Assembly: GCA_964646415.1 (NCBI GenBank)
Contig: CAZYEL010000005.1
Span: 18,601-67,053 of the forward strand
Origin: an uncultured Candidatus Saccharibacteria bacterium
Lineage (GTDB): Bacteria; Patescibacteriota; Minisyncoccia; UBA6257; 2-01-FULL-56-20
Reading direction: 5' to 3'
Length of the DNA: 48,453 bases
Shown: piece after piece, positions 8,459-28,810 of the stretch
Layout: every line of letters begins with the position of its first letter
Position numbering within the stretch: position 1 is the first letter of the stretch
Notes under the pieces: model-generated
Told to the model about the DNA's origin: nothing
What the model saw: the letters and a program-made list of their open reading frames with translations, nothing else
The model's database searches: none
Program-made: the position numbers and the translations under genes

Positions 8459-10237
8459 ATGAATTCCGAAACCAAGGTTTGTCAAAACTGCAACAATAAT
8501 TTCACAATCGAATCGGCTGATCGTGAGTTTTACAAGAAAGTGCAGGTGCCTCCGCCCACGTTTTGCCCGGAGTGCAGGTTCACGCGCCGCTTGATTTTAA
8601 GAAATGAGCGCGGCCTTTATAAGAGAAAATGCGATCTTTGCGGGGAGGAGAAGATAGTATCGTTTCCATTCCAAAGCCCGTTTAAAGTTTATTGCAAAGA
8701 ATGTTGGTGGAGCGACAAGTGGGATGCGGGAATATATGGCCGCGAGTATGATTTTTCTAAACCGTTTTTCGAACAGTTTTTTGATTTGGTTAAAGCGGTT
8801 CCTCGTCCGGGGATCGTTCATCAAGGGATGATTGTAGATAGCCCATATACCAACCGAGCGAGCAATCTCAAGAATTGCTATTTGCTTTATGCGAGTAACT
8901 TTGACGAGAATTGTTCTTACGGCGCGTGGTTCAACGATTCGAAAGATTCGATGGACGGTCTGGCGGTTCAAAAATCGGAGCAATGCTATGAGTGCATAGA
9001 TTGCGTTGAGTGCAGCCGGTTATTATATTCGCAGGAATGTATCGCGTGCAGTAACTCGTATTTTTTGCTGAATTGCCGCAATTGCGAGAGCTGTTTCGGA
9101 TGCGTCAATCTGCGGAATAAAAGCTACTGCATATACAACAAGCAGTATTCGAAAGAGGATTACAAACGGGTGCTCGCGCAGTTTAATCTAGGCAGTCGGA
9201 TGATGCGGGACGCCCTCGCCTTACAATTCGGAGCGCAAAAAGGAAAATATATTTTTCCGTCTTTGATTTCGCGGCACAGTCAGAACGTTTCCGGTAATTG
9301 GATCGAAGAATCCAAAAATGTATTCAGGGGGTTTTCCTGCCGGAAGGTGGAAGATGCGAGATATTCTTCCATGCTTGTCGAATCGAAAGACGTGATGGAT
9401 TACTCGTTCTGGGGCCGCGCGACCGAGCTTATTTATGAATCTGTGAATATAGGGTATCAATCTTCGAATATCCGTTTCAGCACAGAAATTTGGGATAATG
9501 CCGCAGACATAACTTATTCTTTTAATTGCCACAGTTCCCATGATCTTTTTGGGTGTGTCGGATTAAGGAAAAAGGATTATTGCATTTTAAACAAGCAGTA
9601 TTCAAAAGAAGACTTTGAGGCAATCTCCAAAAAAATAATCGAACAGATGAAGACGATGCCGTATATCGATGGCAAGGGCAGGAAATATTCGTACGGAGAG
9701 TTTTTCCCCGCGGACTTGCATCTTTTTGCGTACAATGAGACGACCGCGCATGAATATTTTCCGCTGACAAAAGAAGATGCTCTGCGGCAGGGATATGCAT
9801 GGAAGGATGGAGAGGGCCGCAATTATAAAATAACGCTTCCGGCGGATCAAATTCCTGACGGTATAAAAGAGGTGTCCGGTGACATTCTGAAAGAGATTGT
9901 GGGGTGTGCGCACGCCGGAAATTGCAATCACCAGTGCACTACCGCGTTTCGCGTCACTTCGGAGGAGCTTCAATTTTATAAGACTTTCGGAATACCTATC
10001 CCGCAGTTTTGTCCGAATTGTCGGTATTATGAACGCGTGAGCAAAAGGAACCCCTTGAAATTATGGGCAAGAAAATGCGAGTGCGGCGGGGATCGCGCTA
10101 TGCGGGGCGCTTATAAAAATAACTCCGCGCATTCCCACGGAACAGATCCTTGTGCTGTGGTGTTTGAGACAAGCTACGCCCCCGACCGACCGGAAATCGT
10201 GTATTGCGAGAACTGCTACAATGCCGAGGTCGCATAA
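8459..10237 (+). CDS. Cys-rich multi-zinc-ribbon protein, paralog 1
   Basis: N-terminal CxxC...PPxxCxxCR, W-x-D-x-WD, two CxxCxxC...FGC-x-x-LR-x-K-x-YCI-x-NKQYSKE modules, YGEFFP...AYNET, C-terminal YCxxCY; about 35 Cys by my count. Confidence 0.9.
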   Translation: MNSETKVCQNCNNNFTIESADREFYKKVQVPPPTFCPECRFTRRLILRNERGLYKRKCDLCGEEKIVSFPFQSPFKVYCKECWWSDKWDAGIYGREYDFSKPFFEQFFDLVKAVPRPGIVHQGMIVDSPYTNRASNLKNCYLLYASNFDENCSYGAWFNDSKDSMDGLAVQKSEQCYECIDCVECSRLLYSQECIACSNSYFLLNCRNCESCFGCVNLRNKSYCIYNKQYSKEDYKRVLAQFNLGSRMMRDALALQFGAQKGKYIFPSLISRHSQNVSGNWIEESKNVFRGFSCRKVEDARYSSMLVESKDVMDYSFWGRATELIYESVNIGYQSSNIRFSTEIWDNAADITYSFNCHSSHDLFGCVGLRKKDYCILNKQYSKEDFEAISKKIIEQMKTMPYIDGKGRKYSYGEFFPADLHLFAYNETTAHEYFPLTKEDALRQGYAWKDGEGRNYKITLPADQIPDGIKEVSGDILKEIVGCAHAGNCNHQCTTAFRVTSEELQFYKTFGIPIPQFCPNCRYYERVSKRNPLKLWARKCECGGDRAMRGAYKNNSAHSHGTDPCAVVFETSYAPDRPEIVYCENCYNAEVA

Positions 10238-10244
10238 ACCCACC

Positions 10245-10281
10245 AAGGTTAAACCTTGGGAACCCCTAAAGGTTTAACCTT
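10245..10281. promoter_or_regulatory. Double palindrome AAGGTTNAACCTT (copy B), upstream of paralog 2
   Basis: AAGGTTAAACCTT 10245-10257 and AAGGTTTAACCTT 10269-10281; ATG at 10291. Confidence 0.6.
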
Positions 10282-10290
10282 AACGAATCC

Positions 10291-11985
10291 ATGAATTCCG
10301 AAACAAGAAAATGTAAAAGTTGCAGCTCAGAATTTGTTATCGAACCAGATGACTTCGCGTTCTACGAAGCCGTCCACGTCCCGCCGCCGACGTGGTGCCC
10401 GCAATGCCGACTTGTGCGGCGACTTTCGTGGCAGGGGTACCGGATGCTTTATAAACGGAAGTGTGACTTTACGGGGGAAATGATGCTCACTACGCATCAC
10501 CCTGATGCCCCACACAAAATGTATCGGCAGGATGTGTGGTGGTCGGATAAATGGGACCCCAAGAGCTACGGACGCGATTATGATTTTTCGAAGTCGTTCT
10601 TTGAACAATTCCGGGAGCTTTTCAAAGTAGTGCCGCTCCCGAACTTATATACGGTATATTCAGCGATGACGAACAGCGACTACTGCAATGCTGCCTCCGG
10701 TCTCAAAAATTGCTACTTGTGTTTTCGCATCACTAGTGGTGAAGACAGCGCTTATTTGAACAAGGTCGTGGACGCAAAAAACTCACTCGATTCTTCTTTT
10801 ATAAATCAAGTGGAACTTTGTTATGGCTCGGTTCGCCTCAATAAATGTTATGGGGTTTTCTTCTCGCAGGATTGTGACAATTGCCACAACGTCTGGTTCT
10901 CGAAGGACCTCACGGGATGCTCGGATTGCATCGGATGTATCAATCTCCGAAGCAAGCAGTACTGCATTTTCAATGAACAACATACGAAAGAAGAGTATGA
11001 AAAGTTTCGAGGCGAGCTTGATATTGGTTCGCCGGAGCATCTTGCGGAGTTCAGAGCGAAGGCGGAAGTGTTCTTTGCAAAGCATCCGCGGAGGAATTTC
11101 CATGGGCTGAAAAACACCGATGTTTCCGGCGATTACATTTTTAATTCCAAAAATGTCAAAGACTCATATATGCTCGGGAATGGAGAAAATCTTCGATATT
11201 GTTATCTCTTGAAAAATGGGCCTGCGCGGAATTCCTACGATTGGTCTATTTTCGGTGATAATGGCGAATGGATTTACGATTCCGTATGGGTGGGGCTTAC
11301 CGCATCACACAATAAATTTTCTGCTTGGAACTACGGTTCCCGCGATATTGAGTACTGCTTTGGGTGTATGAATTCGGGAAATCTCTTCGGGTGCGTGGGT
11401 TTGCGAGGCGGAACGGAGTATTGCGTGTTGAACAAGCAACACACGAAGAGCGAGTATGCGGAGCTTGTGACGCGCATCAAAAAGCAGATGCTTGAGGTTC
11501 CATATCGCGACCGGCTCGGGCGCGAATATCGTTATGGAGAAATGTTGCCGGCGGAGATGAGCCCTTGGCTTTATAACGAGTCCACGGCCCATGAATGGTT
11601 CCCGAAAAAGAAAGAAGAGGCGCTCGCCGAGGGTTTCTTGTGGCGCGACCCGGATGTGCGGGAATACCGCGAGGCGACCGTGCAGCTTCCCGAACATATA
11701 AAGGACATTCCCGACAGTATTACGAAGGAAATCCTGAAATGCGGCGCATGCGGAAAAAACTACCAGATTATTCCGATGGAGCTCCAGTTTCTCCGCCGTT
11801 TCGGCTTGCCTGTGCCGCGCGAGTGCCCGCTTTGCCGTGACCGGGCGCGGATACAACAGCTTAATCCGATGGATATCTATAACCGTACTTGCGCAAAGTG
11901 TGGCAAGGCTATCCAAACTTCGTATGCCCCTAACCGACTCGAAATTATATACTGTGAACAATGCTATCAGAAAGAAGTTATATAA
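10291..11985 (+). CDS. Cys-rich multi-zinc-ribbon protein, paralog 2
   Basis: Same motif order as paralog 1; ends in a compact CxxC...CxxC ribbon (CAKCGKAIQTSYAPNRLEIIYCEQC). Confidence 0.9.
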   Translation: MNSETRKCKSCSSEFVIEPDDFAFYEAVHVPPPTWCPQCRLVRRLSWQGYRMLYKRKCDFTGEMMLTTHHPDAPHKMYRQDVWWSDKWDPKSYGRDYDFSKSFFEQFRELFKVVPLPNLYTVYSAMTNSDYCNAASGLKNCYLCFRITSGEDSAYLNKVVDAKNSLDSSFINQVELCYGSVRLNKCYGVFFSQDCDNCHNVWFSKDLTGCSDCIGCINLRSKQYCIFNEQHTKEEYEKFRGELDIGSPEHLAEFRAKAEVFFAKHPRRNFHGLKNTDVSGDYIFNSKNVKDSYMLGNGENLRYCYLLKNGPARNSYDWSIFGDNGEWIYDSVWVGLTASHNKFSAWNYGSRDIEYCFGCMNSGNLFGCVGLRGGTEYCVLNKQHTKSEYAELVTRIKKQMLEVPYRDRLGREYRYGEMLPAEMSPWLYNESTAHEWFPKKKEEALAEGFLWRDPDVREYREATVQLPEHIKDIPDSITKEILKCGACGKNYQIIPMELQFLRRFGLPVPRECPLCRDRARIQQLNPMDIYNRTCAKCGKAIQTSYAPNRLEIIYCEQCYQKEVI

Positions 11986-11991
11986 CGACCG

Positions 11992-13746
11992 ATGTTGATT
12001 GAAACAAGAAGTTGCCAGAATTGTAAAAACCAGTTTGTCATCGAGCCGGAAGATTTTGATTTTTACAAAAAGATGTGTGTGCCGCCGCCGACATTCTGTC
12101 CCGACTGCCGGGCTCAACGGCGGATGCTGTGGCGCAACGAACGTACCTACTACAAGAGGCCTTGTAACGCACCCGGGCACAGTGAGGGCGTCATCAGTAT
12201 CATTGCACCCGAATCGCCCTTCGTCATTTTCGATCAACAATATTGGTGGAGTGATAGTTGGGATCCGCTTGATGCTGGTCGCGACCTCGATTTTTCAAAA
12301 CCGTTTTTTAAACAGTATCGCGAGCTTTTGGAACGAGTGCCAATCATAGCGCTTTCGAACACAAACTCGGTGAATAGCGATTACTGCAGTTCTGCAGCAT
12401 GGAACAAAGATTGCTATCTAATTAGCGGCGGAGGGTGGGATGAGCGAGTATCTTATGCAAATCGCGCCGTCAAGGTGAAGGATTCGCTTGATGTCTACAT
12501 CGTCGATAACAGCGAACTTTGTTACGACTGCTCATACTGCACAAAGTGTTACCGACTTCTCATGAGCCGTAACTGTGAGGCATGCAGCGAATCCGCTTTC
12601 CTTTACAATTGCCGAAATTGTTCAAGCTGTTTTGGCTGTGCGAATTTGCGAAGTAAGCAGTATTGCTTCTTCAATGAACAACTGACGAAAGAAGAGTACG
12701 AAAGGCGCGTACGCAGTGCCGACATTGGTAGTTTCCGTGCTTTGCAGGGCGTTGCACGACGGTTTCACAATTGCGTGTATTTGAAAGCTATCCACAAGTA
12801 CGCGGATATTATGAATTGTACCAACGCGACTGGCGACCATATTCGTAACGCGCGGAACTGTCGCGACTGTTTTGATATTGGCGGTGACGACACTGAACAC
12901 TGCCGTTTTGTGAACTGGAGCGGTTTCAAGACGAAGGACCTCTACGATACTGGCCCGGGTGCCGGATGGAACTCCGAAATGCTTTACGAGGGGCTTGACC
13001 TAAACGACTCATCCCGGCTTGTTGGTTGTGTGACGAACTATAACTGTCAGGATATGTGGTACTGCGTTAATTGCCACAATTCGAGCGACTGCTTTGGTTG
13101 TTACGGGCTTCGCAGTAAACAGCACTGTATTCTGAATAAGCAGTATTCGGAGGAGGAGTATAAGGCGCTACTCTCGAGTGCCAAAGAGCATATGGAAAAG
13201 ATGCCTTACATTGATGCACAAGGGAGGAGGTATGGTCTCGGCGAGTTTTTCCCACCGGAGATACAGCCATTCGCGTACAACGAAACAATAGCGCAAGAGT
13301 ACTTTCCACTGACAAAAGAAGTGGCAACAAGGCAGGGGCATCGGTGGCGCGAGCAAGACGCCCGTCACTATACGGTTACGCTGCATGCAAGAGACGTTCC
13401 AGACCATATCAAAGACGTTTCCGATGATATTCTAAGAGAAATCATAGAGTGTGAACATGCCGGGGCATGTTTGGAACAATGCACGACAGCGTTCAAAATC
13501 ATCCCTGGAGAATTGCAGCTCTATCGGCGACTAGGCATTCCATTACCCCATCTTTGTCCAAACTGTCGGCACTACCAACGCCTTGCACAGCGCAACTCTT
13601 TGAAACTTTGGCACCGTCAATGCATGTGTAATAAAAGCCATCGAGAACACTCCGGGCAGTGCCTAAACGAGTTTGAGACGAGTTATGCACCGGAGCGTCC
13701 GGAAATCGTTTATTGCGAGCAGTGTTACCAACAGGAAATTTCATAA
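11992..13746 (+). CDS. Cys-rich multi-zinc-ribbon protein, paralog 3
   Basis: Same architecture; 6-bp gap from paralog 2. Confidence 0.9.
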   Translation: MLIETRSCQNCKNQFVIEPEDFDFYKKMCVPPPTFCPDCRAQRRMLWRNERTYYKRPCNAPGHSEGVISIIAPESPFVIFDQQYWWSDSWDPLDAGRDLDFSKPFFKQYRELLERVPIIALSNTNSVNSDYCSSAAWNKDCYLISGGGWDERVSYANRAVKVKDSLDVYIVDNSELCYDCSYCTKCYRLLMSRNCEACSESAFLYNCRNCSSCFGCANLRSKQYCFFNEQLTKEEYERRVRSADIGSFRALQGVARRFHNCVYLKAIHKYADIMNCTNATGDHIRNARNCRDCFDIGGDDTEHCRFVNWSGFKTKDLYDTGPGAGWNSEMLYEGLDLNDSSRLVGCVTNYNCQDMWYCVNCHNSSDCFGCYGLRSKQHCILNKQYSEEEYKALLSSAKEHMEKMPYIDAQGRRYGLGEFFPPEIQPFAYNETIAQEYFPLTKEVATRQGHRWREQDARHYTVTLHARDVPDHIKDVSDDILREIIECEHAGACLEQCTTAFKIIPGELQLYRRLGIPLPHLCPNCRHYQRLAQRNSLKLWHRQCMCNKSHREHSGQCLNEFETSYAPERPEIVYCEQCYQQEIS

Positions 13747-13772
13747 CCGATGCCAATATACCAATGGATACT

Positions 13773-13792
13773 CCTGCCTACCGGCAGGCAGG
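13773..13792. repeat. 20-bp REP-like imperfect palindrome CCTGCCTACCGGCAGGCAGG
   Basis: Its exact reverse complement occurs at 33331-33350. Confidence 0.9.
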
Positions 13793-13836
13793 AATTATGC
13801 GAATAAGGAAAACATTAGTATTATTAGCATGAATTC

Positions 13837-13864
13837 TCCGCCAGGCGGATCCGCCTTCGGAGGA
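13837..13864. repeat. REP-like double hairpin TCCGCCAGGCGGATCCGCCTTCGGAGGA
   Basis: Two tccgcc/ggcgga-type stems; a related sequence lies inside aspS (30677-30698). Confidence 0.75.
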
Positions 13865-13888
13865 GTATATTAGCATCGCGTACTACTC

Positions 13889-14899
13889 ATGAGTGAATTA
13901 AGACAAGACCTTGTTTCCGGTGACTGGATTATCACAGCGCCCGGGCGCGCCCGGCGTTTGCACGATATGTTGCCCCCGAAGCGTCGGCGTTTGCCGACCT
14001 CAAAATCGAAGTGCCCTTTTGAAGATTTGCGGGCGTCGGGGAATTGGCCGCCGCGATTCCAATATCCGGCGAAAGGCCCGTGGAAAATAGCGGTGATACG
14101 GAACAAATACCCCGCGCTCCGCCGCGATGAGCGTTGCGCGATGGAAATGCGTCAAGGCCCTTATGCCTATATGGAAGGAATTGGGCATCACGATGTGGTT
14201 ATTACCAAAGACCACGCGAAGGACTTTGCGTCTCTTTCTTCTGCGGAGGCAGTCACGCTGCTTCGCATGGTTCAGCAGATGCATCGCCGATTCAGGGACG
14301 ACGGATGTTCCCGTTACGTTTCCACATTCGCGAATTGGGGACCCTCGGCAGGTGCGTCGTTGTATCACCCCCACTATCAACTGCTCGCGTTGCCTATTGT
14401 TCCCCCCGACGTAGCGCATTCTCTCGAAGGATCAAGAGTCCATTTCGCGAAGCACCGCTCATGTGTTCACTGCGATATGTTGAGATTCGAGCGGGAAGCG
14501 GGCACCCGCATTATTGAAGCGACGCCGCAGGCAATCGCGGCGGCGCCGTTCGTTTCCCGCCAGCCTTTTGAGGTGAGAATATATCCGAAGCGGCATGCAT
14601 CCCGTTTTGAAGATGCGCCCTTGCGTGACATCCGGGAAGTTGCGGGATTGCTGCAGTTGGCCCTCCGCCGCATCAAGAAATTCCTGAATGACCCCGATTA
14701 CAATTTCTTTATCCACACGGCGCCGCTTCATAAGGGGCGTGAATTTGAGCACTATCACTGGCACGTCGAGGTATTTCCGAAGATTTCCATCCTCGCCGGT
14801 TTTGAACTGGGTACGGGCGTGGATATCAACGTGGTGGCCCCCGAGGAAGCAGCAGCGGTACTCAAAGGGAAAGGCAAAGTTGCAGGCACCGATGTATAG
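13889..14899 (+). CDS. galT: Galactose-1-phosphate uridylyltransferase (HIT-like GalT class I)
   Basis: MSELRQDLVSGDWII, CPF, NKYPAL, GASLYHPHYQ (HxHxQ), GFELGTG. Confidence 0.9.
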   Translation: MSELRQDLVSGDWIITAPGRARRLHDMLPPKRRRLPTSKSKCPFEDLRASGNWPPRFQYPAKGPWKIAVIRNKYPALRRDERCAMEMRQGPYAYMEGIGHHDVVITKDHAKDFASLSSAEAVTLLRMVQQMHRRFRDDGCSRYVSTFANWGPSAGASLYHPHYQLLALPIVPPDVAHSLEGSRVHFAKHRSCVHCDMLRFEREAGTRIIEATPQAIAAAPFVSRQPFEVRIYPKRHASRFEDAPLRDIREVAGLLQLALRRIKKFLNDPDYNFFIHTAPLHKGREFEHYHWHVEVFPKISILAGFELGTGVDINVVAPEEAAAVLKGKGKVAGTDV

Positions 14900-15233
14900 A
14901 CTGTTGCTACAGCATAAAGTTCCCGTTGCGCTGCTCGGTGCGTCCGTCGTTCTTCCGATAGCGGGGATGGTGTGGGCATATTTTGCGCTGCGCGGTATCA
15001 ACCAGCCGCTTATCGTCCACTTTACGGAACACACTGGTATTACCGAAGTTGGCACCCTTTCTTACGTTCTCTTTCTCGGAGCATTTTGGGCATTTGCGTC
15101 CTTCGTAAATATTGCGATAGGGATTCCGTTACTTAAAAGAGATGCTTTTTTAGGGTATTTCCTTACCGGAGCGAGTTTTTGCTTGAGCATCTTGATTTTT
15201 ATATGGTTTGCGGCTATCATACATGTCAACTAA
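14892..15233 (+). CDS. Small membrane protein (about 3 TM) of unknown function
   Basis: 113-aa hydrophobic ORF overlapping the galT stop; contains LIVHF...GI. Confidence 0.7.
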   Translation: MYRLLLQHKVPVALLGASVVLPIAGMVWAYFALRGINQPLIVHFTEHTGITEVGTLSYVLFLGAFWAFASFVNIAIGIPLLKRDAFLGYFLTGASFCLSILIFIWFAAIIHVN

Positions 15234-15241
15234 ACAATAGT

Positions 15242-15297
15242 GCTAAGTGAGAAGTGATAAGTGAAAAGCCACTTACCACTTACCACTTACCACTTAC
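15242..15297 (+). repeat. Heptamer arrays: GNNAAGT x3 followed by CACTTAC x4 (near-complementary)
   Basis: Four perfect CACTTAC units at 15270-15297, just before the rplU ATG. Confidence 0.9.
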
Positions 15298-15302
15298 TCA
15301 CT

Positions 15303-15614: not shown

Positions 15615-15618
15615 CCAC

Positions 15619-15655
15619 AAAAGAAACCGGCGGCCTCGCTTGTGCGAAGTCGCCG
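15619..15655 (-). terminator. Probable intrinsic terminator after the orphan ORF (between convergent genes)
   Basis: Minus strand: CGGCGACTTCGC-ACAA-GCGAGGCCGCCG imperfect stem followed by GTTTCTTTT. Confidence 0.5.
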
Positions 15656-15679
15656 TGATGTTGCGCCTCCGGGCGGATG

Positions 15680-16967: not shown

Positions 16968-19334
16968 TCAGTATCCCTTGTTTGCAATGAGAAGCTCCAA
17001 AACTTCCCTTGGGAAGAGTGGTGGGCGTTCCGCAAGCGCCTGGTGGTAAAAGACTGTTGAGGGGGTGATGCCTGGGAGGGTGTTTACTTCGATGATAAAG
17101 AGGTTGCCGGTGGAGAGATGTGCGAACGCATCGAGACGGGAATATCCCCGGATGCCCAGATGTGCTGCGACCGTTTCAATCCGTTCTTTGACGCGCCGAA
17201 GGACGCGCGGCGCCATGAGTATCTCCGGCGGCGGGGTGATATTCACGCCCGTCCCCCCCTGGAATTTTTCTTCGACGGAGAGAACTTCTCCTTCCGCGAC
17301 GGTGATGCTGGGATTGAGCGCGTGTAGTTCTCCGGCTTTTTCGACTACCCCGACCGTTATCTCGAGCCATCCTGTTTTTCTGTGGTGCTTGAGCGTGTGA
17401 TGCACCACTTTCAGCGTATCGGTTTCAACGAAACGTTCAAAGAGAAGCTCTGCGGGCGTTTCCGGTGGCATCTCGATTATTTCCGGTTGATGCGCGAAAG
17501 TGTTTTTTGATGCGCGCGGCGCATGCGCCGCGAGGAGGCGGATATATTTTCCGAGGTCATTTAAAGAGTAAAGATGCACGACGCCGGTGGAGCATCCGTC
17601 GGCGCGGGGTTTTATGACAATAGTGCGCGTCCCCAGTTCTTTCCTGGTCTTTTTCCAGAACTTTTGGACACCGGTGACATCCATGCGCAAAAGAAATTCG
17701 GTTTTTACGGTGGTGCCGGGAATTGCACGGACGCCTTTGATGCCCATTGTGTCGACGGCGATGGACGTTGCGCGTTTATCCATGCACAACCGCGATGCTT
17801 TCCCATCCGGTCCATTGTAGCGTACGCCGCATTTCTCAAAAAGCGCTTGGAGCGTGCCGTCTTCTCCCACGCCCCCGTGGAGCGCATTAAAAACGAATGA
17901 AGCACCTTTGAGAAATTCCCGAAGCGTCATTTTCTCGGGTACGAAGAACTCCTCTTGGTTTTTTTCTTCCTGGAGTCCCAGGCGGAGCCGTGCGCGCGCT
18001 TCAAATGCATCAAGGCGCTCTTTTGCCCTGGGGTATTGGGTGCAGTTCGCCGTGATTTCTTCGACGGTGTGATTCAGCGCGAGGTGGTACGGCAGCCGCC
18101 ACACGCCGCCTTTCGTATCAAGAAGGTAGGGGATGGGTCTATAGCGCGAGGAGCCGCGGAGTTTGAGCCACACGTTCGTGCCGCTCATGAGCGATACTTG
18201 GCGTTCCGACGTGTTTCCGCCGAAGAGCACGCGCACTTCTTTGCGTTTCGCGGGTGCCTCTGTCTTTTTCCCGGGGAAGGCAATGCGGTTGCGCGCGCAT
18301 GCATTCCGGAGAATATGCTGGAGTACGTCCGCATGTGTCATACCGATGCGCGCGGCTTGCTGAAAAAGAAAACTGTTTTGTTCCATGCCGCTTACCGTGT
18401 TGAAATCCGAAAACCATATGTTTCCGTCGGGGAGGACCCACCCGTCGAACCGCCCGAAGTCCCGTACATTGAAGAGTGCGAAGAGTTGCTCGGCTTGGGC
18501 TTGTATTCTCTCAATTACGTGATTATCGAATCGCGGGGGACAGTGCCAGATGACCTGCCGCGTGGGGAGATATTTCCTCCGGAAATCGAAGATTTGGTGC
18601 TGGGTATAGTCGGTTTCGATCTCGGTGGGAGGAAGCGCCACGGGCGTGCCGAAGCGGTTTTGGAGGATGATAGTAGTGAACTCCGTGCCCTCCGCGAAGG
18701 GTTCGATGACTACCCGGGTTGCCATCCGTTTCGAGAAGATGAGGCGCACCTTCTCGAGTGCTTCCTTGGGTGTCGCGACCGAGAACACGCCGATGCTTGA
18801 ACCTCCGCGCGCGGGCTTCACCACCGCACGCCGTACGCGGTGTGCCTCAAAAAATTGCTTGATGATTGCGCGGTGGTCGCGGTGATAAATTTTGAGCACT
18901 GCGGAAGGCAATGCGAAAAAACCGTGCGCGCGTATGAACTCATTCGCGTCGAACTTGTCGAATGCGCGTTCGCATGTGCGGGAGTCGGACCCGACAAAAG
19001 GGATGCGGTGATGCTCAAGAAAGCGTTGTATGCCTCCGTCTTCCCCGAAGTGGCCGTGCATTACGGGGAAGACGATATCGGCGCGCTTGAGGAAGCGTGC
19101 GAGCGATGCGGGCGAGAGCGGTGTCCCGGCTTGCCGGAGTTTGAAATCAAAGTCGGATGGAGTGTTGCTGTAAAGTTGCGCTTTTGAGATAGCATAGGCA
19201 TTTTTTTGCGAATCCAGATACACGGGGATCACTTCAATCTCGCGCGAGGAGAGGTGATCAAGCACCGACCGCGCGGAGTTTAAAGAAATGCCCCGCTCAA
19301 GAGATGGCCCTCCGCAGATAATGGCGACTTTCAT
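16968..19334 (-). CDS. ddl: D-alanine--D-alanine ligase with two fused Ddl domains
   Basis: Two ATP-grasp units: GGPSLERGISLNS...HGHFGEDG...KPARGGSSIG...RRKY and GGNTSERQVSLMS...HGGVGEDG...KPRADGCSTG...EEKF...EVNTLPG. Confidence 0.88.
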   Translation of the reverse strand: MKVAIICGGPSLERGISLNSARSVLDHLSSREIEVIPVYLDSQKNAYAISKAQLYSNTPSDFDFKLRQAGTPLSPASLARFLKRADIVFPVMHGHFGEDGGIQRFLEHHRIPFVGSDSRTCERAFDKFDANEFIRAHGFFALPSAVLKIYHRDHRAIIKQFFEAHRVRRAVVKPARGGSSIGVFSVATPKEALEKVRLIFSKRMATRVVIEPFAEGTEFTTIILQNRFGTPVALPPTEIETDYTQHQIFDFRRKYLPTRQVIWHCPPRFDNHVIERIQAQAEQLFALFNVRDFGRFDGWVLPDGNIWFSDFNTVSGMEQNSFLFQQAARIGMTHADVLQHILRNACARNRIAFPGKKTEAPAKRKEVRVLFGGNTSERQVSLMSGTNVWLKLRGSSRYRPIPYLLDTKGGVWRLPYHLALNHTVEEITANCTQYPRAKERLDAFEARARLRLGLQEEKNQEEFFVPEKMTLREFLKGASFVFNALHGGVGEDGTLQALFEKCGVRYNGPDGKASRLCMDKRATSIAVDTMGIKGVRAIPGTTVKTEFLLRMDVTGVQKFWKKTRKELGTRTIVIKPRADGCSTGVVHLYSLNDLGKYIRLLAAHAPRASKNTFAHQPEIIEMPPETPAELLFERFVETDTLKVVHHTLKHHRKTGWLEITVGVVEKAGELHALNPSITVAEGEVLSVEEKFQGGTGVNITPPPEILMAPRVLRRVKERIETVAAHLGIRGYSRLDAFAHLSTGNLFIIEVNTLPGITPSTVFYHQALAERPPLFPREVLELLIANKGY

Positions 19335-19376
19335 TTGCGAAAATATAATATGATTATTATACTTGAAATACAAAGG

Positions 19377-19407
19377 AAAAAAAGCCACCAATCGCCCTGA
19401 CTGGTGG
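19377..19407 (-). terminator. Intrinsic terminator after the GT39 gene
   Basis: Minus strand: CCACCAGTC-AGGGC-GATTGGTGG then C and a T7 tract. Confidence 0.65.
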
Positions 19408-20974: not shown

Positions 20975-21043
20975 CCCGCACAGGCAATATTTACTTGGAT
21001 TTCGGACTTGAGAATTTATGGCTCGGAGAGTAAAATCCAGATA

Positions 21044-21346
21044 ATGATTGTGCGCCAAAAACTCGTAGAGCCGCTTCAAGATTCTTTTGTAAAAGTGGTG
21101 GTGGACATTGAGCGGGAGATTCTTTCGGCAACGTGCGAATACCATGTGGACTGCGCGGAGGAGCTTTCAGAGGACGGTTCGAAAGCCGAAAGCCTCTGGG
21201 GCGCGAATGTGAATTTCGGCGATAAGAGTATTGCGTTCGTGTCCCTCATTAACATTAAACCGGCGCTCGGGAATAGAGCCATGGAAATCAAACTTCCCGA
21301 TATTCGCAAAAAAGTAGAGGAGGTGGTTAGAAAGTTTTTATTCTAA
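21044..21346 (+). CDS. DUF5674-like protein
   Basis: KVVVDIERE...H.D...L...GS...LWGAN...SLINIKP..GNR; recognised from memory of the family. Start may be 21008. Confidence 0.6.
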   Translation: MIVRQKLVEPLQDSFVKVVVDIEREILSATCEYHVDCAEELSEDGSKAESLWGANVNFGDKSIAFVSLINIKPALGNRAMEIKLPDIRKKVEEVVRKFLF

Positions 21347-21621: not shown

Positions 21622-21658
21622 AGGTTGAACCTTAAAGAGTCCCTAAAGGTTCAACCTT
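21621..21658. promoter_or_regulatory. Double palindrome AAGGTTNAACCTT (copy C), upstream of paralog 4
   Basis: AAGGTTGAACCTT 21621-21633 and AAGGTTCAACCTT 21646-21658; ATG at 21669. Confidence 0.6.
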
Positions 21659-21668
21659 GAGCGAGTGT

Positions 21669-23471
21669 ATGAATTCCGAAACCAAAACCTGCCAGAGTTG
21701 TAAAGCGCAATTTACGGTTGCGCCGGATGACTTCGCGTTCTATGAAAAACTGAAAGTCCCGCCGCCCACATGGTGTCCGGAATGCCGGATGGTGCGGCGG
21801 TTAGTGTGGAGAAATGAGCGTTGTCTATACAAACGGAAGTGCGACCTATGTAGCGTCGCCGTTTTTTCCGCATTCGCACCCCGAGCCCCTTATACGGTTT
21901 ATTGTGTGGAGTGTTATGCATCGGACAAATGGGATGCCGCGCAGCATGCCCGACCCTACGATTGGAATAAAAGTTTCTTCGAGCAATGGCACGCTCTTTT
22001 TGCCGATGTTCCCCAGCGGAACTTGTACGTTACCAACTCTACCAATTCTCCCTATGGCGGAAACATGTTGCGCGATTCTACTCGTATCTATCTTTCCTAT
22101 TCTCTCTTAAGCTCGGAAGACGTGTTTTACTCGAAAGATATTGATAAATCCCGCTCGGTTTTTGACAGCTTTGATTTGGTGGAGTCAGAGAATGTGTTCC
22201 AAGGGGTGCTTGGGTATAAGAACTATAACTGCGATTTTATCTATTTTTCTCGCAGCTGCATGGATTCTCGGTATCTCTATGATTGCGTGAATTGCCGCAA
22301 TTGTTTTATGTGCACGAATCTTCGTAATAAGGAGTTTTGTATTAGAAATAAGCCATACGCGAAAGAGGAATATCAGAAAGAAATCAGCGGAATTGATTTT
22401 GGAAGTTACACAACCTCCTCTGCTCTCTACGGGGAGTTCTTAGAATTAACAAAGAATGCGCTTCATAAGTATGCGACCATTCTCAATTGCTCGCACTGCA
22501 CGGGAAATGACCTTATCAACTCGAAAAATGCGCGCGCATGTTTCAGCAGTCATGACATTGAGAATGTGAAATTCGCATTCCGCATTTTGACGACGCGGGA
22601 CTCTATGGACCTTACCTATCTCGGTTTGAATGCCGAACTTCTGTATGAGTGCCAGGGAACCGGGAGCGCGCACAGCTCATTTGTTCGATTCAACGTTCAT
22701 GGATTCGACGGGCACAACCATGATTTGCAGTACACCGCGAATTGCGGTTTCTCATCACATCTTTTCGGATGTGTCGGAATTCGGAATAAGCAATATTGCA
22801 TTTTAAACAGGCAATATTCAAAGGAAGAATATGAGGTGCTTGTGCCGAAGATTATCGCGCATATGGACGAGATGCCGTATGAATCGCGTGGAGTGAATAG
22901 CGAAGTGCGTATCGTGTATCGGTACGGGGAGTTTTTTCCCGTTGAGTTTTCGCCGTTTGCGTATAATGAAACGCTTGCGCAGGAGTGCTTTTCGCTTACG
23001 AAGGAAGAAGCGGATACACGAGGATACCAATGGAGGGAACCAGAAACGAAACACTACCGTATCACGAAACCCCCCGATGACATTCCCGGTCACATCAAAG
23101 ATGCCGACGATTCAATATGCAGTGAAGTGATAGGATGTGCGCATGGGGGGTTGTGCAAACATCAGTGCGCGACTGCGTTTAAGGTTCTACGCGAGGAACT
23201 TCAGTATTACAAGAAGAGAAATATTCCCTTGCCGCGGCTGTGCCCAAACTGCAGGCATTATGAGCGGCTGGCACAGCGAAATCCGTTGAAGCTGTGGCAT
23301 CGGCGTTGCATGTGCAGCGGGATGAATAGCGTAGAGCGTAGAGCGTATAGCAACACCGTCGCGCACTCCCACGGGAACAGTCCGTGCCCTAACGAATTCG
23401 AAACGCCGTACGCGCCGGAGCGGAAGGAAATCATATATTGTGAGTCGTGTTACAACTCGGAAATCGTGTAG
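21669..23471 (+). CDS. Cys-rich multi-zinc-ribbon protein, paralog 4
   Basis: Starts MNSETKTC like paralogs 1 and 2; same motif order. Confidence 0.9.
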   Translation: MNSETKTCQSCKAQFTVAPDDFAFYEKLKVPPPTWCPECRMVRRLVWRNERCLYKRKCDLCSVAVFSAFAPRAPYTVYCVECYASDKWDAAQHARPYDWNKSFFEQWHALFADVPQRNLYVTNSTNSPYGGNMLRDSTRIYLSYSLLSSEDVFYSKDIDKSRSVFDSFDLVESENVFQGVLGYKNYNCDFIYFSRSCMDSRYLYDCVNCRNCFMCTNLRNKEFCIRNKPYAKEEYQKEISGIDFGSYTTSSALYGEFLELTKNALHKYATILNCSHCTGNDLINSKNARACFSSHDIENVKFAFRILTTRDSMDLTYLGLNAELLYECQGTGSAHSSFVRFNVHGFDGHNHDLQYTANCGFSSHLFGCVGIRNKQYCILNRQYSKEEYEVLVPKIIAHMDEMPYESRGVNSEVRIVYRYGEFFPVEFSPFAYNETLAQECFSLTKEEADTRGYQWREPETKHYRITKPPDDIPGHIKDADDSICSEVIGCAHGGLCKHQCATAFKVLREELQYYKKRNIPLPRLCPNCRHYERLAQRNPLKLWHRRCMCSGMNSVERRAYSNTVAHSHGNSPCPNEFETPYAPERKEIIYCESCYNSEIV

Positions 23472-23505
23472 TTAGAAAATAGCAAGTAGAAATATAGAAA
23501 ATAGA

Positions 23506-25248
23506 ATGAAACCAGAAGTAAGAAAATGCAAAGAATGCGCCGCTCAATTCCCGATTGAAGCGGACGATATTGAGCTTTACGAGAAGTTCAAGGTGCCCGC
23601 GCCGGTGCGGTGCCCGGACTGCCGTCAGCGCCGGAGGTATTCTTGGCGGAACGAGCGTGTGCTCTACCGCCGGAATTGCGACCTCTGCAGGAAAAGCACG
23701 GTAACGATTTATTCGCCGAACAAGCCCTTCAAGGTGTATTGCCCGCCTTGTTTTTGGTCGGATAAATGGACTGGGCTTGATTACGGGCGCGAGTTTGATT
23801 TCAATAAGCCCTTCTTCCCGCAATGGCGGGAGCTGCAGCTTGAAGTACCGCGCATTGCGCTTCTCACCAAGAACAGCGTGAATTCGGAGTATACGAACCA
23901 CTCAAGCAATAACCGGAATTGCTATTTGAGTTTCAGTACATTCGAGTCCGAAAACATTATGCATTCGGCGAATGTGTGGAAGCAATCAAGGGATTGCGTT
24001 GATTGTTACCTCGCAAGCGTGGAGGGTGGCGCGGAATTGTGCTATGAGTGCGTGAATTCCGCGCGGATGTTTAACTGCCAATTCGGCGTGTTGCTTAAGG
24101 ATTGCACGGATTGCTTTTATTCTTACGACCTTCGCAGCTGTTCAAACTGCTGTCTTTCGTGGAATCTCCGGAACAAGCAGTATCACATCTTGAATGTCGG
24201 GCACTCGAAGGAGGAGTATGAGAAGAGATTTGCCGAATTGAATCTTGGGTCTTTTGTGGGGCGCGAGGCTTTGTATGCTCAATTTAAAGAGCTGCTGGAG
24301 AAGCGGGCCCTCCACAAATTCGCGGTGATTGAAAAATGCGTGAACGTGTCGGGGAATATGCTTTTCAACTCGAAAAATACGCGCCATTCGTTCGACGTGG
24401 ATAAAACGGAAGACACCAAATACGGGATTATCACGCCCGATGTGAAGAATTCTATGGATTCATATCATTATGGATTTGCCTGCGAGCTGATTTACGAGTC
24501 GCACGCGCTGATCCACGACTACGATGTGAAGTTTACGCACTTAAGTTACGACAACTCCCATTTGGAATACTGCGATTCGTGCCATAACTCCGAGAATCTT
24601 TTCGGTTGCGTGGGCATAAAGCAAGGGAAGTATGCAATTTTCAACAAACGGTACGAGGAGAGTGAATACGCGGCGCTCAAGAACCGCATTATCGCGCACA
24701 TGAAAGAGACGGGGGAATACGGTGAATTTTTTCCGCCGGAGCTGTCGCCCTTCGGATACAACGAAACCCAGGGGCAGGTATATATGCCCCTCAAAAAGGA
24801 AGAAGCGGCGGCGAAGGGTTATAAATGGGAAGACCTTACGCCGGGCACGTTCGGCAAGGAAACATTGAAACCCGGAAGCATCCCCGACGACATCAAGGAT
24901 ATCCCTGATACTATTTTGAAAGAAGCGCTTGCATGCGTCTCGTGCACGCGAAATTATAACGTGGTACAAGCCGAACTCGATTTCTACCGGCGCGTGCAGG
25001 TCCCCATTCCCAGGGCTTGCCCCGAATGCCGCTATCGCCGGCGGCTTGAGCGGCGTTTGCCGCGGAAGCTTTGGCATAGGCGTTGCAACTGCAACGCGGC
25101 AAATAGCAAAGAGCAAATAGCCCATAGAAACACGGCTCCGCATTTCCACGGCGATGCACCGTGCCCCAATGAATTTGAGACGCCGTATGCGCCGGAGCGG
25201 AAGGAGGTCGTGTACTGCGAGCAGTGTTATCAGGCGGAAGTGGCATAG
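23506..25248 (+). CDS. Cys-rich multi-zinc-ribbon protein, paralog 5
   Basis: Same architecture; preceded by a TAG-initiated heptamer array (23473-23508). Confidence 0.9.
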   Translation: MKPEVRKCKECAAQFPIEADDIELYEKFKVPAPVRCPDCRQRRRYSWRNERVLYRRNCDLCRKSTVTIYSPNKPFKVYCPPCFWSDKWTGLDYGREFDFNKPFFPQWRELQLEVPRIALLTKNSVNSEYTNHSSNNRNCYLSFSTFESENIMHSANVWKQSRDCVDCYLASVEGGAELCYECVNSARMFNCQFGVLLKDCTDCFYSYDLRSCSNCCLSWNLRNKQYHILNVGHSKEEYEKRFAELNLGSFVGREALYAQFKELLEKRALHKFAVIEKCVNVSGNMLFNSKNTRHSFDVDKTEDTKYGIITPDVKNSMDSYHYGFACELIYESHALIHDYDVKFTHLSYDNSHLEYCDSCHNSENLFGCVGIKQGKYAIFNKRYEESEYAALKNRIIAHMKETGEYGEFFPPELSPFGYNETQGQVYMPLKKEEAAAKGYKWEDLTPGTFGKETLKPGSIPDDIKDIPDTILKEALACVSCTRNYNVVQAELDFYRRVQVPIPRACPECRYRRRLERRLPRKLWHRRCNCNAANSKEQIAHRNTAPHFHGDAPCPNEFETPYAPERKEVVYCEQCYQAEVA

Positions 25249-25271
25249 ACACGACTGATGATTCATAGCCA

Positions 25272-27029
25272 ATGACGGAAGTGAGAACGTGCCAAAACTG
25301 CAAACAGGAATTTACGATAGCTCCCGAGGACTTTGATTTTTATAAAAAAGTAAAGGTTCCGCCCCCGACGTTTTGTTGGAAGTGTAGATTTCAGAGGAGA
25401 TTGACCTATAGGAACGAGCGGAATCCGTTTTGGGCGACGAGCGGTAAATCCGGGAAGCGGATACTCTCGATTTTTCCTCCCGAGGCGGGCGTTACGGTCT
25501 ATGATGAAAAGGAGTGGCGGTCGGATGATTGGGACGGGATGGACTACGGCAGGGATTATGATTTCTCGAGGCCGTTTTTCGAGCAAATACATGAATTAGC
25601 AAAAACGGTGCCGCGTTTCGGGCCGCACACGGAGGACAACGTGAATTGCGAGTACCTCGTCAATACCGGCTGGAGCAAAAACTGTTATCTCGTGTGCAAC
25701 ACTTCGTATGCGGAGGATTGCGCGTATGGTAACGCCATGGACTATTGCAAGTCCTCGTTCGATTGTTCGCATGTGACGAAATGCGAACGGTGTTATGGAT
25801 GTTTTTGGACCAGAGAGTCATATCAAACTCATTTTTCCACGCGCTCGATAAGCAATGCCTCAAGTTGGTGTCTCTTTGGTTGCAAAGGCATGACTGACTG
25901 TTTCGGGTGCGTGAATATGATGAACAAGAGCCACTATATCTTTAACCAGCCTTACTCCAGGGAAGAATACGAAGCGAAGATCGGGGCAATGAAGCTTAAT
26001 ACCTGGTCGGGACTCCAAAAAGCAAAGGCGGAGGCGTTTGCCTTCGCGGCAAAGTTTCCCGTGGCATATCTGAACGGAGTTCTGAATGACAACGTGACCG
26101 GGGAATATGTCAGTGAATCAAAGAATGTGCAGTATGGGTATCTGGTGAACGGCGGGAGAGATTTAAAATACGTGCAATACCTCCAAATTCCTGGCGCGGA
26201 GGATTCGCAGGACCTCACCATTTGGGGAGAAAAACACATATTGGGATATGAAAACGCGACCTCCGGCCTTGGAGTCTCAAATTGCCAGTTTTTGGAAGGA
26301 TGCTGGGCGGAGGTTTTTGATTCTCAATATTGTATTGCATGCCGCAACATTTCAAACTGTTTCGGGTGCGTGGGGTTGAAGAAAAAACAATGCTGTATTT
26401 TCAATAAGCAATATTCGAAAGGCGAGTATGAGAAGCTGAAAGCAAAAATAATCGCGCACATGAACGCGATGCCGTTCGTGGATAAAGCGGGAAGAGTATA
26501 TAAATATGGAGAATTTTTCCCTGCGGAGCATGCCCTTTGCGGGTACAACATCTCTCTGGCGAATGAACACTTTCCCTTGACCAAAGAGGAGGCATTGGCA
26601 CAGGGGTATCTGTGGACAGATATGAAATACGGGGATCACAAAGTGACGGTCATGCCGGACAAAATCCCCGATGCCATTGAAGATGTGCCCGACACGTTCA
26701 CGAAGGAAATTTTGGAATGCATGCAATGCAAAAAGGCATTCCGGGTAGTTCCCATGGAACTCGAATTCCTCAAAGCCGTAAAAATTCCGGTTCCGCGCAC
26801 GTGTGGCGACTGCCGACACAGTGAAAGGATTTCCCGGCGAGCGAAGGCGTTTCTCTACCATCAAACATGTGAATGTGCGGGGGCAAAATCCTCAAACGGG
26901 GTCTACGCGAATTTCACGAAGCATATTCATGGTGATGTGCCTTGTCCGGAAGAGTTTGAAACAAGCCATGATAAAAGTCGCCCTGAAATTGTTTATTGCC
27001 TCAAGTGTTTTTGGGCGGAAGTGGGGTAA
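25272..27029 (+). CDS. Cys-rich multi-zinc-ribbon protein, paralog 6 (most divergent)
   Basis: Same architecture, but the second CxxC/CxxC site is replaced (SGKS...YDEKE). Confidence 0.9.
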   Translation: MTEVRTCQNCKQEFTIAPEDFDFYKKVKVPPPTFCWKCRFQRRLTYRNERNPFWATSGKSGKRILSIFPPEAGVTVYDEKEWRSDDWDGMDYGRDYDFSRPFFEQIHELAKTVPRFGPHTEDNVNCEYLVNTGWSKNCYLVCNTSYAEDCAYGNAMDYCKSSFDCSHVTKCERCYGCFWTRESYQTHFSTRSISNASSWCLFGCKGMTDCFGCVNMMNKSHYIFNQPYSREEYEAKIGAMKLNTWSGLQKAKAEAFAFAAKFPVAYLNGVLNDNVTGEYVSESKNVQYGYLVNGGRDLKYVQYLQIPGAEDSQDLTIWGEKHILGYENATSGLGVSNCQFLEGCWAEVFDSQYCIACRNISNCFGCVGLKKKQCCIFNKQYSKGEYEKLKAKIIAHMNAMPFVDKAGRVYKYGEFFPAEHALCGYNISLANEHFPLTKEEALAQGYLWTDMKYGDHKVTVMPDKIPDAIEDVPDTFTKEILECMQCKKAFRVVPMELEFLKAVKIPVPRTCGDCRHSERISRRAKAFLYHQTCECAGAKSSNGVYANFTKHIHGDVPCPEEFETSHDKSRPEIVYCLKCFWAEVG

Positions 27030-27040
27030 AATAAGAAAGT

Positions 27041-28810
27041 ATGAACTTGGAAACTCGAACTTGCCAAAACTGCAAACAATCTTTCACAATCGAGCCAGAG
27101 GATTCCCAATTCTACGAGCGCGTGAACGTCCCGCCGCCGACATTTTGCCCTGATTGCCGACTCCAACGGCGGATGACGTTTCGGAACGAGCGCTCGCTCT
27201 ACAAGCGCACATGCGACCTTTGTAAAAAGCCGTTTGTCTCGATGTATTCACCTGACAAGCCCTTCACGGTGTATTGCAAAGAGTGCTGGTATTCCGATAA
27301 CTGGGACCCGCTTCAGTACGGGCAGGAATACGACTGGAAGAAACCTTTTTTCACGCAATTCCGGGAGTTGATGCATAAAGTGCCGCGCATTGGGATTATG
27401 CATATTCATACGAATATGAATGCCGACTTTGCAAATTATGTTGCAGACAGTAAAAACGTCTATCTCTCGCAATCGGTGATCGCGAAATCCGAAAACGTGT
27501 ATTATTCCCGAAATATTGATACGGGAAAAGATGTATTCGATTGCATGTATGTAAAAGAATCAGAGCGTTGTTATGAAGATTTGGATTGTTTGCACATGTA
27601 CCAAACGCAGTGGTGCGTTCGTTCGCGAGAGTGTCTTGGCTCCGCTTTTCTCTTTGATTGCGTAAGTTGTCAGGATTGTTTTATGAGCGCCAATCTTCGC
27701 AATAAGCGCTATGTGGTGCGCAATCAACAGCTTACGAAGGAAGAATATTCCGTGTTTATAGGGAAGTATAAAAAAGAGGGGTATGAAAGCAGTAAGAAAT
27801 ATCGCGGCGAGTTCCGGGAACTGATGCAACGTGCATTGCATAAATATGGAAATTTGCTCAAGTGCGTGGACTCAACTGGAGATAACCTGGACAATGTCAA
27901 AACAGTGAGAAATTCTTTCGATCTTTATGACGGAGAAAATCTTCGCTTTTGCCTTCGTAATGTAAAAAGCAAGGATTCGTATGATGTGGCTTTTGCAGTG
28001 AGTACTGAGTTGGCGTACGAAGGTATGGCGGCGGGATTTGGAAACTCCAGAGCTTTTTCCGTGGCTCATTGTGATGCGAACGAGAGAGTCTCATATTGTG
28101 ATTGGTGTCAGAGCTCCGCCGACCTTTTTGGATGCGCGGGTCTTCGTAAGAAACAGCATTTTATTTTGAACAAGCAGTATTCGAAAGAGGAATATGAAAA
28201 ATTGAAGGCGCGGATAATTGAGCATATGAACACGCTGCCATATGTCGATAAGACGGGAGGGGTGTATGCGTACGGCGAATTTTTCCCAGCCGAGCTTTCT
28301 CCGTTTGCTTATAATGAAACGCTTGCCGGAGAGTATTTTCCTTTATCGAAAGGTGAAACAGTGGCGCGGGGATATGTATGGCGCGAGTTGGATCCTTCGC
28401 CGCACAAACCCACCATTGTTGCAGGGGAACTTCCGGATGCAATTGCCGATGTTTCAGACGAAATACTCAAGGAAATTATCGAATGTACGGTGTGCAAACG
28501 CGTGTATCGAATACTCGCGCCCGAACTTGCGTTCTTGCGCCGCGAGGGGATTGTTTTGCCGCGCGAGTGCCAGGAATGTCGGCATAAAGACCGATTCGAT
28601 TTGCGGAATCCCTTAAAGCTTTGGCATCGGCGTTGTTGTTGCAGTGGCTTGAAAGGTAAAAATGAAAATGAAAGTGAGAATGAGTATAAGAATACTGCGA
28701 TGCATTTCCACGGGGCGGAGAAGTGTCTAAGTGAGTTCGAGACGAGCTACGCGCCCGAGCGGCCGGAGATGGTGTATTGTGAAAGTTGCTACCAATCAGA
28801 AGTTGTGTGA
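27041..28810 (+). CDS. Cys-rich multi-zinc-ribbon protein, paralog 7
   Basis: Same architecture; NENESENE hexamer expansion near the C-terminus. Confidence 0.9.
   Translation: MNLETRTCQNCKQSFTIEPEDSQFYERVNVPPPTFCPDCRLQRRMTFRNERSLYKRTCDLCKKPFVSMYSPDKPFTVYCKECWYSDNWDPLQYGQEYDWKKPFFTQFRELMHKVPRIGIMHIHTNMNADFANYVADSKNVYLSQSVIAKSENVYYSRNIDTGKDVFDCMYVKESERCYEDLDCLHMYQTQWCVRSRECLGSAFLFDCVSCQDCFMSANLRNKRYVVRNQQLTKEEYSVFIGKYKKEGYESSKKYRGEFRELMQRALHKYGNLLKCVDSTGDNLDNVKTVRNSFDLYDGENLRFCLRNVKSKDSYDVAFAVSTELAYEGMAAGFGNSRAFSVAHCDANERVSYCDWCQSSADLFGCAGLRKKQHFILNKQYSKEEYEKLKARIIEHMNTLPYVDKTGGVYAYGEFFPAELSPFAYNETLAGEYFPLSKGETVARGYVWRELDPSPHKPTIVAGELPDAIADVSDEILKEIIECTVCKRVYRILAPELAFLRREGIVLPRECQECRHKDRFDLRNPLKLWHRRCCCSGLKGKNENESENEYKNTAMHFHGAEKCLSEFETSYAPERPEMVYCESCYQSEVV

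Follow-up and report, generated by a model that had tools for sequence, protein, structure and literature searches.

A 2025 survey of 2,918 Patescibacteria genomes counted 5,713 homologs of VirD4-type type IV coupling proteins (T4CPs), of which only 148 are near virB4; most of these T4CPs are thus encoded at a distance from virB4 and may have been exapted (PMC12102498). In the passages searched, the survey makes no mention of a zinc-finger/solenoid family as their neighbor or of a PF26449 membrane partner. Known substrates of VirD4-dependent type IV secretion systems (T4SSs), the XVIPs of Xanthomonas and the Beps of Bartonella, combine a shared part with a member-specific part and are clustered with a VirD4-type ATPase. 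Here we describe a protein family that resembles these substrates in its logic. Seven members (paralogs 1–7, denoted p1–p7) are encoded in a 48,453-nt stretch of DNA from an uncultured Candidatus Saccharibacteria bacterium (GenBank assembly GCA_964646415.1, contig CAZYEL010000005.1, positions 18,601–67,053 of the forward strand), and we refer to the whole of this stretch as the window. We infer that they are soluble multi-zinc proteins (zinc binding is predicted), in which two finger-pair "handles" flank two β-solenoids of 12-residue, Cys-laddered coils. In related loci the family is coupled to a soluble ATPase that appears to be of the same class as the orphan T4CPs of the survey, judging by matches to TrwB_AAD_bind, TraG-D_C, and VirD4-like CD1115 (PMC12102498). 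Our favored reading, to which we assign a probability of about 45%, takes the family members to be clients of this ATPase module, either as translocated substrates or as substrate-specific adaptors. In contrast to XVIPs and Beps, the family has no XVIPCD or BID, toxin domain, adjacent immunity genes, or nearby T4SS channel. Its ATPase is soluble, divergent, and usually far from virB4 (PMC12102498), and export of the family proteins is putative.

The coupling emerged from the genes that surround the family elsewhere. We clustered all neighbor genes in 80 family-centered loci, and the sole enriched neighbor was a soluble P-loop ATPase, present in 23 of the loci, in 20 of which it lies next to family members or among them. 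Its domain matches are TrwB_AAD_bind, TraG-D_C, and DUF87. The best NCBIfam match was "VirD4-like, CD1115 family" (E 6e-16; 58 bits vs. a 250-bit cutoff), with TraD and CedD next (CedD, 9e-7 to 3e-5); by sequence, the PDB yielded TrwB only (E 0.007), and PADLOC yielded only generic HerA/mad8 P-loop matches. The ATPase comes in two forms. A short form of ∼488 aa is 65%–87% identical across lineages. The other form, a long paralog with a long tail, is 46% identical to the short one; in 24 out of 32 copies it has a C-terminal CxxC-x17-CxxC finger (PF23477, zf_Tbcl_2, 1e-14), a finger type also seen in the family.

A reciprocal scan of an independent collection of metagenome contigs, with the ATPase as query, produced 80 ATPase-centered loci. 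The family was found within 10 kb in 60 of these, including 39 of the 42 loci of at least 12 kb (93%). A family copy lay within 500 bp of the ATPase in 40 loci, and all copies were co-oriented. As a guess based on array numbers, ∼10%–15% of random loci would have the family within 10 kb. The canonical gene order is SecD–SecF–(sigma-r4/HARE-HTH)–PF26449 membrane protein–∼173-aa transmembrane (TM) protein–ATPase–(CutA)–family array–(long ATPase), in which the PF26449 protein is ∼470 aa long (module examples are L004:6642-9992, L010:2012-7418, and L081–L160 around position 10001). An alternative order is DnaK–long ATPase–family–family–short ATPase–DnaJ. At least three different outer contexts keep the adjacency of ATPase and family, which argues for a function beyond inherited synteny. 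A gene for CutA1 (divalent-ion tolerance, PII-like) separates the ATPase from the first family member in 24 loci (e.g., L071:9574-10002, L108, L127, and L155). SecDF, the sigma-r4/HARE-HTH protein, DnaK/DnaJ, and an M17-like aminopeptidase were considered as parts of the system and judged to be housekeeping synteny.

Within the window, the family occupies two arrays:

8459..10237, + strand: p1, 592 aa, subfamily F3; nearest relative 70% identical, in another genome (L001)
10291..11985, + strand: p2, 564 aa, subfamily F18; ortholog 80% identical in the syntenic locus L031
11992..13746, + strand: p3, 584 aa, subfamily F5; second N-terminal finger degenerate
21669..23471, + strand: p4, 600 aa, subfamily F7
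23506..25248, + strand: p5, 580 aa, subfamily F17; ortholog 65% identical in L031
25272..27029, + strand: p6, 585 aa, subfamily F15; second N-terminal finger degenerate; ortholog 72% identical in L004
27041..28810, + strand: p7, 589 aa, singleton subfamily F57 among 302 copies sampled

All seven open reading frames (ORFs) are intact and co-oriented, separated within the two arrays by 53, 6, 34, 23, and 11 bp, and 12.3 kb of the window is thereby given to one family. The 592-aa (p1) and 600-aa (p4) starts are the same as the gene calls in public assemblies. No TM segment was found in p1–p7 (Kyte–Doolittle 19-residue mean, maximum ≤1.11), nor a leader or signal peptide, the first CxxC standing directly at the N-terminus. 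An initial annotation of this DNA, made from its letters alone, had placed the seven genes in two arrays, with array coordinates, plus-strand orientation, 6- to 53-bp spacers, and no obvious TM segments or signal peptides, all of which the ORF check and hydropathy analysis bore out. The proteins are 35%–47% identical in pairwise comparison, with a pI of 6.2–7.6; Cys makes up 5.1%–7.0% of residues, giving 29–41 Cys, alongside 10–19 His, per protein. The G+C content of the arrays (window positions 8001–14000 and 22001–28000) is 0.46–0.50 vs. 0.52–0.56 in the flanking housekeeping DNA, which may be caused by an Asn/Lys/Ser/Tyr-rich composition rather than by foreign origin. Promoter and terminator scans gave signals at chance level only.

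The anatomy of the family is described here on p1:

8459..8716, + strand: N-terminal zinc-finger pair (residues 1–86), homologous to the C-terminal pair
8819..9148, + strand: β-solenoid module 1 (residues 121–230), ∼9 coils of 12 residues with Cys/Ser ladders
Residues 247–261: linker helix, from the AlphaFold model
9293..9586, + strand: β-solenoid module 2 (residues 279–376), homologous to module 1
9656..9898, + strand: acidic region (residues 400–480), loop-rich, highly conserved, net charge −4 to −8
9899..10234, + strand: C-terminal zinc-finger pair (residues 481–592), C483/C493/C518/C521 with a basic helix and C540/C542/C565/C583/C586

The protein is built from two internal duplications: The N-terminal finger pair is homologous to the C-terminal pair (hhalign 99.2%, E 1e-19), and the two repeat modules are homologous to each other (hhalign 99.7%, E 2e-25). 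The first N-terminal finger is a treble clef in which the invariant C8, C11, C36, and C39 are followed by a basic helix (R40, R43, R44, and R48). In an alignment of 124 sequences, C8/C11/C36/C39, C483/C493/C518/C521, and C540/C565/C583/C586 are conserved at 98%–100%. The second N-terminal finger is of the CxxC-x17-CxxC type and is frequently degenerate, with a Cys occupancy of 43%–75%; its cysteines are lost in p2, p3, and p6 and in over half of the family. This loss corrects the initial annotation, which gave all seven an N-terminal CxxC..CxxC ribbon. p2 is also without the Cys/His-rich insert that precedes the last finger. Between the solenoids and the C-terminal fingers, the acidic region follows the consensus MPY.D..GR.Y.YGEFFP.E.SPF.YNET...FPL.KEEA...GY.W.D.

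The solenoid modules have a period of 12 residues (conservation autocorrelation of 0.58 at lag 12). Ladder cysteines sit at repeat positions 6, 9, and 12, spaced three apart, the ladders having an occupancy of 35%–95% over the family, and Cys/Ser ladders form at fixed repeat positions; in p1, a CxxC recurs every 12 residues (C182/185, C194/197, and C206/209, then C212/215). Module 1 of p1 ends in C206-x2-C209-x2-C212-FG-C215...NLRNK followed by the YSKEEY cap helix, and module 2 ends in C357...FGC366...YC375ILNK, again followed by a cap helix. A structure predicted by AlphaFold from the 124-sequence alignment was confident (predicted local distance difference test, pLDDT, 91.1; predicted template modeling score, pTM, 0.86) and replaced a poor model built from a seven-sequence alignment (pLDDT 62). 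In this model the N-terminal fingers and basic helices span residues 1–95, and the chain closes with a zinc finger modeled at high confidence, ending four to six residues past the last Cys. The predicted treble-clef/zinc-ribbon fold of the fingers is matched by zinc-ribbon proteins in BFVD (probability 0.99–1.0; root mean square deviation, rmsd, 0.5–0.8 Å over 40–43 residues). Two repeat modules, a C-terminal ribbon, and an expected β-solenoid were also the content of the initial annotation, and the model (pLDDT 91), together with fold matches confined to β-helices, agrees with it.

We asked which known families come closest. p1–p7 had no family match in Pfam, NCBIfam, PADLOC, PHROGs, or a PDB sequence-profile search; the initial annotation, which knew of no described function, was right that no characterized relative would be at hand in these resources. 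Two CxxC pairs are present at the spacing characteristic of zf_Tbcl and zf_Tbcl_2, and the fingers give weak to borderline scores with these models: 15.7–18.7 bits for PF13451 (zf_Tbcl; cutoff 24), 27.1 bits in p2 only for PF23477 (zf_Tbcl_2; cutoff 27), and 22.8 bits for the CxxC-x17-CxxC model TIGR04272 of NCBIfam (cutoff 36). The likeness to zf_Tbcl and zf_Tbcl_2 (including TIGR04272) lies in the CxxC...CxxC of the four terminal units, which superpose on phage proteins annotated as "putative zinc-ribbon domain"; the two domains cover only ∼30% of a family protein, with most matches below the gathering score, and are themselves without known function, whereas the solenoids and the acidic region are without any model. 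By structure, Foldseek searches of PDB and BFVD returned generic β-helix matches, in addition to the small phage zinc-ribbon proteins locally on the fingers, with GlmU, LpxD, LpxA, and γ-carbonic anhydrase (γ-CA) on top in PDB (E 1e-4 to 1e-2). What these left-handed β-helix proteins have in common with the family is the generic β-solenoid class; they differ in repeat period and in a hexapeptide signature and active-site residues that are not present in the family. On the strength of the model, we take the predicted solenoid to be real, yet outside every solved family.

The nearest known analog of such a coil is, we presume, the insect antifreeze solenoid of the Tenebrio molitor type, in which 12-residue coils carry laddered Cys in place of a hydrophobic core. 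The 12-residue coil and the Cys ladder are shared, but the Cys spacing in the family is 3 and not 6, the consensus shows no Thr-x-Thr ice-binding ladder, and there is no signal peptide. No antifreeze protein of this type was among the top 50 Foldseek matches, and by all criteria except the Cys-laddered 12-residue coil, the two are unrelated. Literature searches on the family, its finger domains, and PF26449 found no description. The finger and domain classes are of known types, as is the ATPase superfamily; what appears to be undescribed in the searchable literature is the family itself, together with its architecture and its link to an orphan T4CP module.

The family is large. The initial annotation had proposed a hidden Markov model (HMM) search and a count of copies across Patescibacteria; a profile search recovered at least 6,595 clusters at 90% identity, and an exhaustive search at E ≤ 1e-30 recovered at least 2,325 clusters at 50% identity. 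The named 90% clusters are all "hypothetical protein," from Liptonbacteria, Jorgensenbacteria, Portnoybacteria, Sungbacteria, Staskawiczbacteria, and Minisyncoccia. At least 586 stretches in GTDB species genomes matched, nearly all titled Patescibacteria and from metagenome-assembled genomes (MAGs) of the Parcubacteria/Paceibacteria type, to which the family is nearly entirely restricted; some automatic "Saccharibacteria" labels and single Gammaproteobacteria and Burkholderiales labels are all unverified. No viral copies were found in IMG/VR viral contigs. Tandem co-oriented arrays are usual, with two or more copies within ∼20 kb in 51 out of 80 loci and eight and nine copies in the largest. 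We grouped 302 full-length copies into 66 subfamilies at ∼48% identity; p1–p7 fall into seven different ones, and 71 out of 79 arrays repeat no subfamily, in no fixed order. A maintained paralog repertoire, as first supposed, is therefore what is seen, and it is nonredundant in each genome.

Every window paralog is closer to a copy in another genome (52%–80% identity) than to a sister (≤47%). Between paralogs, module bodies are 29% identical vs. 48%–54% for the flanks, and at that level the early observation of diverging repeat modules between conserved flanks holds. Among orthologs, the pattern is different. In the p1, p2, and p6 pairs (70%–80% identical overall), solenoids are 73%–82% identical vs. 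61%–85% for the fingers; in the p5 pair, the most diverged of the four (65% overall), the two solenoids are 51% and 62% identical vs. 67%–80% for the fingers. A per-site ratio of nonsynonymous to synonymous change (dN/dS) had also been proposed at the outset. Synonymous divergence (pS) was saturated (0.64–1.2), making the ratio incomputable for most regions, and the statement is limited to nonsynonymous divergence (pN, 0.09–0.41 in all regions) being far under pS everywhere. The best synteny with the window was found in a Candidatus Liptonbacteria MAG (locus L031), where the p2 ortholog is 80% identical, compared with 73% for PBP2, 75% for L21, and 72% for GalT/HIT. Array 1 has one copy in L031 vs. 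three in the window, so copy number turns over. The longest DNA word common to any two paralogs is 23 nt, so recent duplication or conversion has not taken place; the many synonymous changes noted early on in the p4/p5 tails are confirmed, with 29 out of 45 residues identical and 13 of those 29 encoded by different synonymous codons. To judge from these comparisons, the family is ancient, under purifying selection, and not hypervariable. The solenoid faces are subfamily-specific surfaces, mostly conserved among orthologs, and each paralog probably binds a distinct stable target; it is the conservation of the variable modules among orthologs that suggests stable targets and not an arms race.

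In the L031 locus, the GalT/HIT-superfamily gene (DUF4921-like) that follows array 1 in the window (13889–14899, + strand) occupies the same place (L031:5517-6530, 72% identity), beside the p2 ortholog.

How might the parts work together? As client set of the ATPase module, the proteins would dock through their common parts, the two homologous finger pairs (perhaps with the acidic region), onto shared machinery, and the solenoids would serve as specificity parts, each paralog having a distinct target. The partners in the module would be the PF26449 membrane protein, the small TM protein, the soluble VirD4/TraG-like ATPase, and the finger-bearing second ATPase paralog. Several observations weigh against this proposal. 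Gene neighborhood is by itself no demonstration of interaction, and the physical contact with the ATPase, like any translocation, is putative. The ATPase is held by ∼30% of family-centered loci, with most arrays dispersed, and the locus counts include many loci from related lineages and so are not phylogenetically independent. The two arrays of the window follow mreBCD–PBP2 and a DUF5674 gene, respectively, with no ATPase module, and no ATPase homolog is found in the 48-kb window (tblastn, E > 1); because the module lies outside it, the coupling is invisible from the window sequence. XVIPCD and BID have no Pfam match in p1–p7, whose C-terminus is a structured finger and not a disordered charged tail, and the housekeeping-like conservation of the family is unusual for exported effectors. 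Finally, no RNA runs with the window sequence were found among public runs, the matches being groundwater-metagenome DNA runs only.

The conservation and genomic setting of the arrays would suit a different role, in which the proteins act on their own in the cytoplasm, binding nucleic acid or serving as regulators (e.g., as RNA/DNA chaperones or translation/transcription factors). The finger pairs and basic helices would then grip nucleic acid, the solenoid would be a spacer or scaffold, and adjacency to the ATPase would reflect shared regulation or DNA handling. An Arg-rich helix does follow each of the four treble-clef/zinc-ribbon units, the window arrays stand among housekeeping operons, one related array adjoins ComEC, and the ATPase is weakly like DNA translocases (TraD, and CedD at 9e-7 to 3e-5). 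However, the charge of the proteins is near neutral, with an acidic middle region, and a positional coupling to the ATPase of 93%, seen in several contexts, points to more than chance. Paceibacteria genomes are ∼1 Mb or less, and the need for at least seven divergent general binders in so small a genome is hard to see. We hold this role to be unlikely. Metal handling or redox chemistry, with the Cys ladders binding chains of Zn, Fe-S, or other metals for storage, buffering, or electron transfer, would account for the 29–41 Cys and 10–19 His of each protein and for a CxxC every 12 residues on successive coils, and the CutA1 gene between ATPase and arrays in 24 loci is suggestive. Yet the ladder Cys are only partly conserved, at an occupancy of 35%–85% over the family, and so look like small structural core residues rather than obligatory ligands; p1–p7 match no Fe-S or metallothionein model in Pfam or NCBIfam, and the conserved subfamily-specific surfaces would be left unexplained. 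We consider it improbable.

The initial annotation had supposed a diversified repertoire, with binders of variable specificity, metal/Fe-S or redox proteins, or host/phage interaction factors as candidates, and a further reading along these lines is a rapidly diversifying set of binders in host or phage conflict. Arrays are indeed nonredundant assortments, in no fixed order, that draw on 66 or more subfamilies; syntenic relatives differ in copy number (three vs. one in array 1); and paralogs diverge most in their solenoids, which are also less conserved than the fingers in the p5 ortholog pair. Against a rapidly evolving surface, ortholog identity is 65%–80%, with solenoids that match the flanks in conservation in the three closest pairs; pN falls far short of pS; and the p2 ortholog has changed less than PBP2 and L21. 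IMG/VR viral contigs contain no copies, recent duplication or conversion is absent, and no PADLOC defense-protein model was matched by any of p1–p7 at E ≤ 1. The arms-race surface is thus not upheld, and we would give a conflict role little credence. An origin as left-handed β-helix enzymes, of the acyl/acetyltransferase or γ-CA type with zinc-finger appendages, takes its appeal from the top Foldseek matches in PDB; these superpose with a TM-score of ≤0.1 and an rmsd of 11–21 Å, no Hexapep model of Pfam matches even at E ≤ 1, the period is 12 and not 6 or 18, and the solenoids contain no conserved catalytic His/Asp pattern. We rejected such hexapeptide-type enzymes on repeat period, HMMs, and TM-score, and regard them as very improbable.

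The client-set reading admits a bolder version, in which the PF26449 protein, the small TM protein, the two ATPase paralogs, and the solenoid arrays form an unrecognized, Paceibacteria-wide macromolecule translocation system, with the solenoid proteins as cargo exported to or into a host cell. We offer this version as speculative and rather unlikely; if true, it would explain why thousands of Patescibacteria T4CP genes are kept away from virB4. Should the family members prove to be cargo or adaptors, no Patescibacteria translocation ATPase would have had candidate substrates before them. The predicted fold, two narrow 12-residue Cys-ladder solenoids between two zinc-finger pairs, is itself unusual, and a slowly evolving, multicopy family without cover in curated libraries is probably central to the life of these uncultivated, host-dependent bacteria. 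The coupling is also a testable candidate answer to the question of what the approximately two T4CP genes per Patescibacteria genome do when no T4SS adjoins, a question that the literature leaves open (PMC12102498).

Other genes of the window were annotated in passing. Between the two arrays, an 807-aa protein (16968–19391, − strand) matches Dala_Dala_lig_N and Dala_Dala_lig_C twice each and is a fused tandem Ddl. Array 2 is flanked upstream by the DUF5674 gene (21008–21346, + strand) and downstream by a gene (28910–29548, + strand) whose 212-aa product includes an RNase H1 N-terminal (Cauli_VI) dsRNA/hybrid-binding domain. An adenylate kinase-like protein (31972–33045, + strand) is unusually long at 357 aa, with the ADK match only at residues 130–253. 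Finally, a tightly packed operon of overlapping genes (35599–42824, + strand) encodes a nitroreductase-like protein (a faint match), an ELFV (Glu/Leu/Phe/Val) dehydrogenase-like protein, a 517-aa protein without a Pfam match, a ThiF-family E1-like enzyme, an alpha/beta hydrolase, and a 7TM histidine kinase, and may be a small-molecule or peptide-modification cluster.

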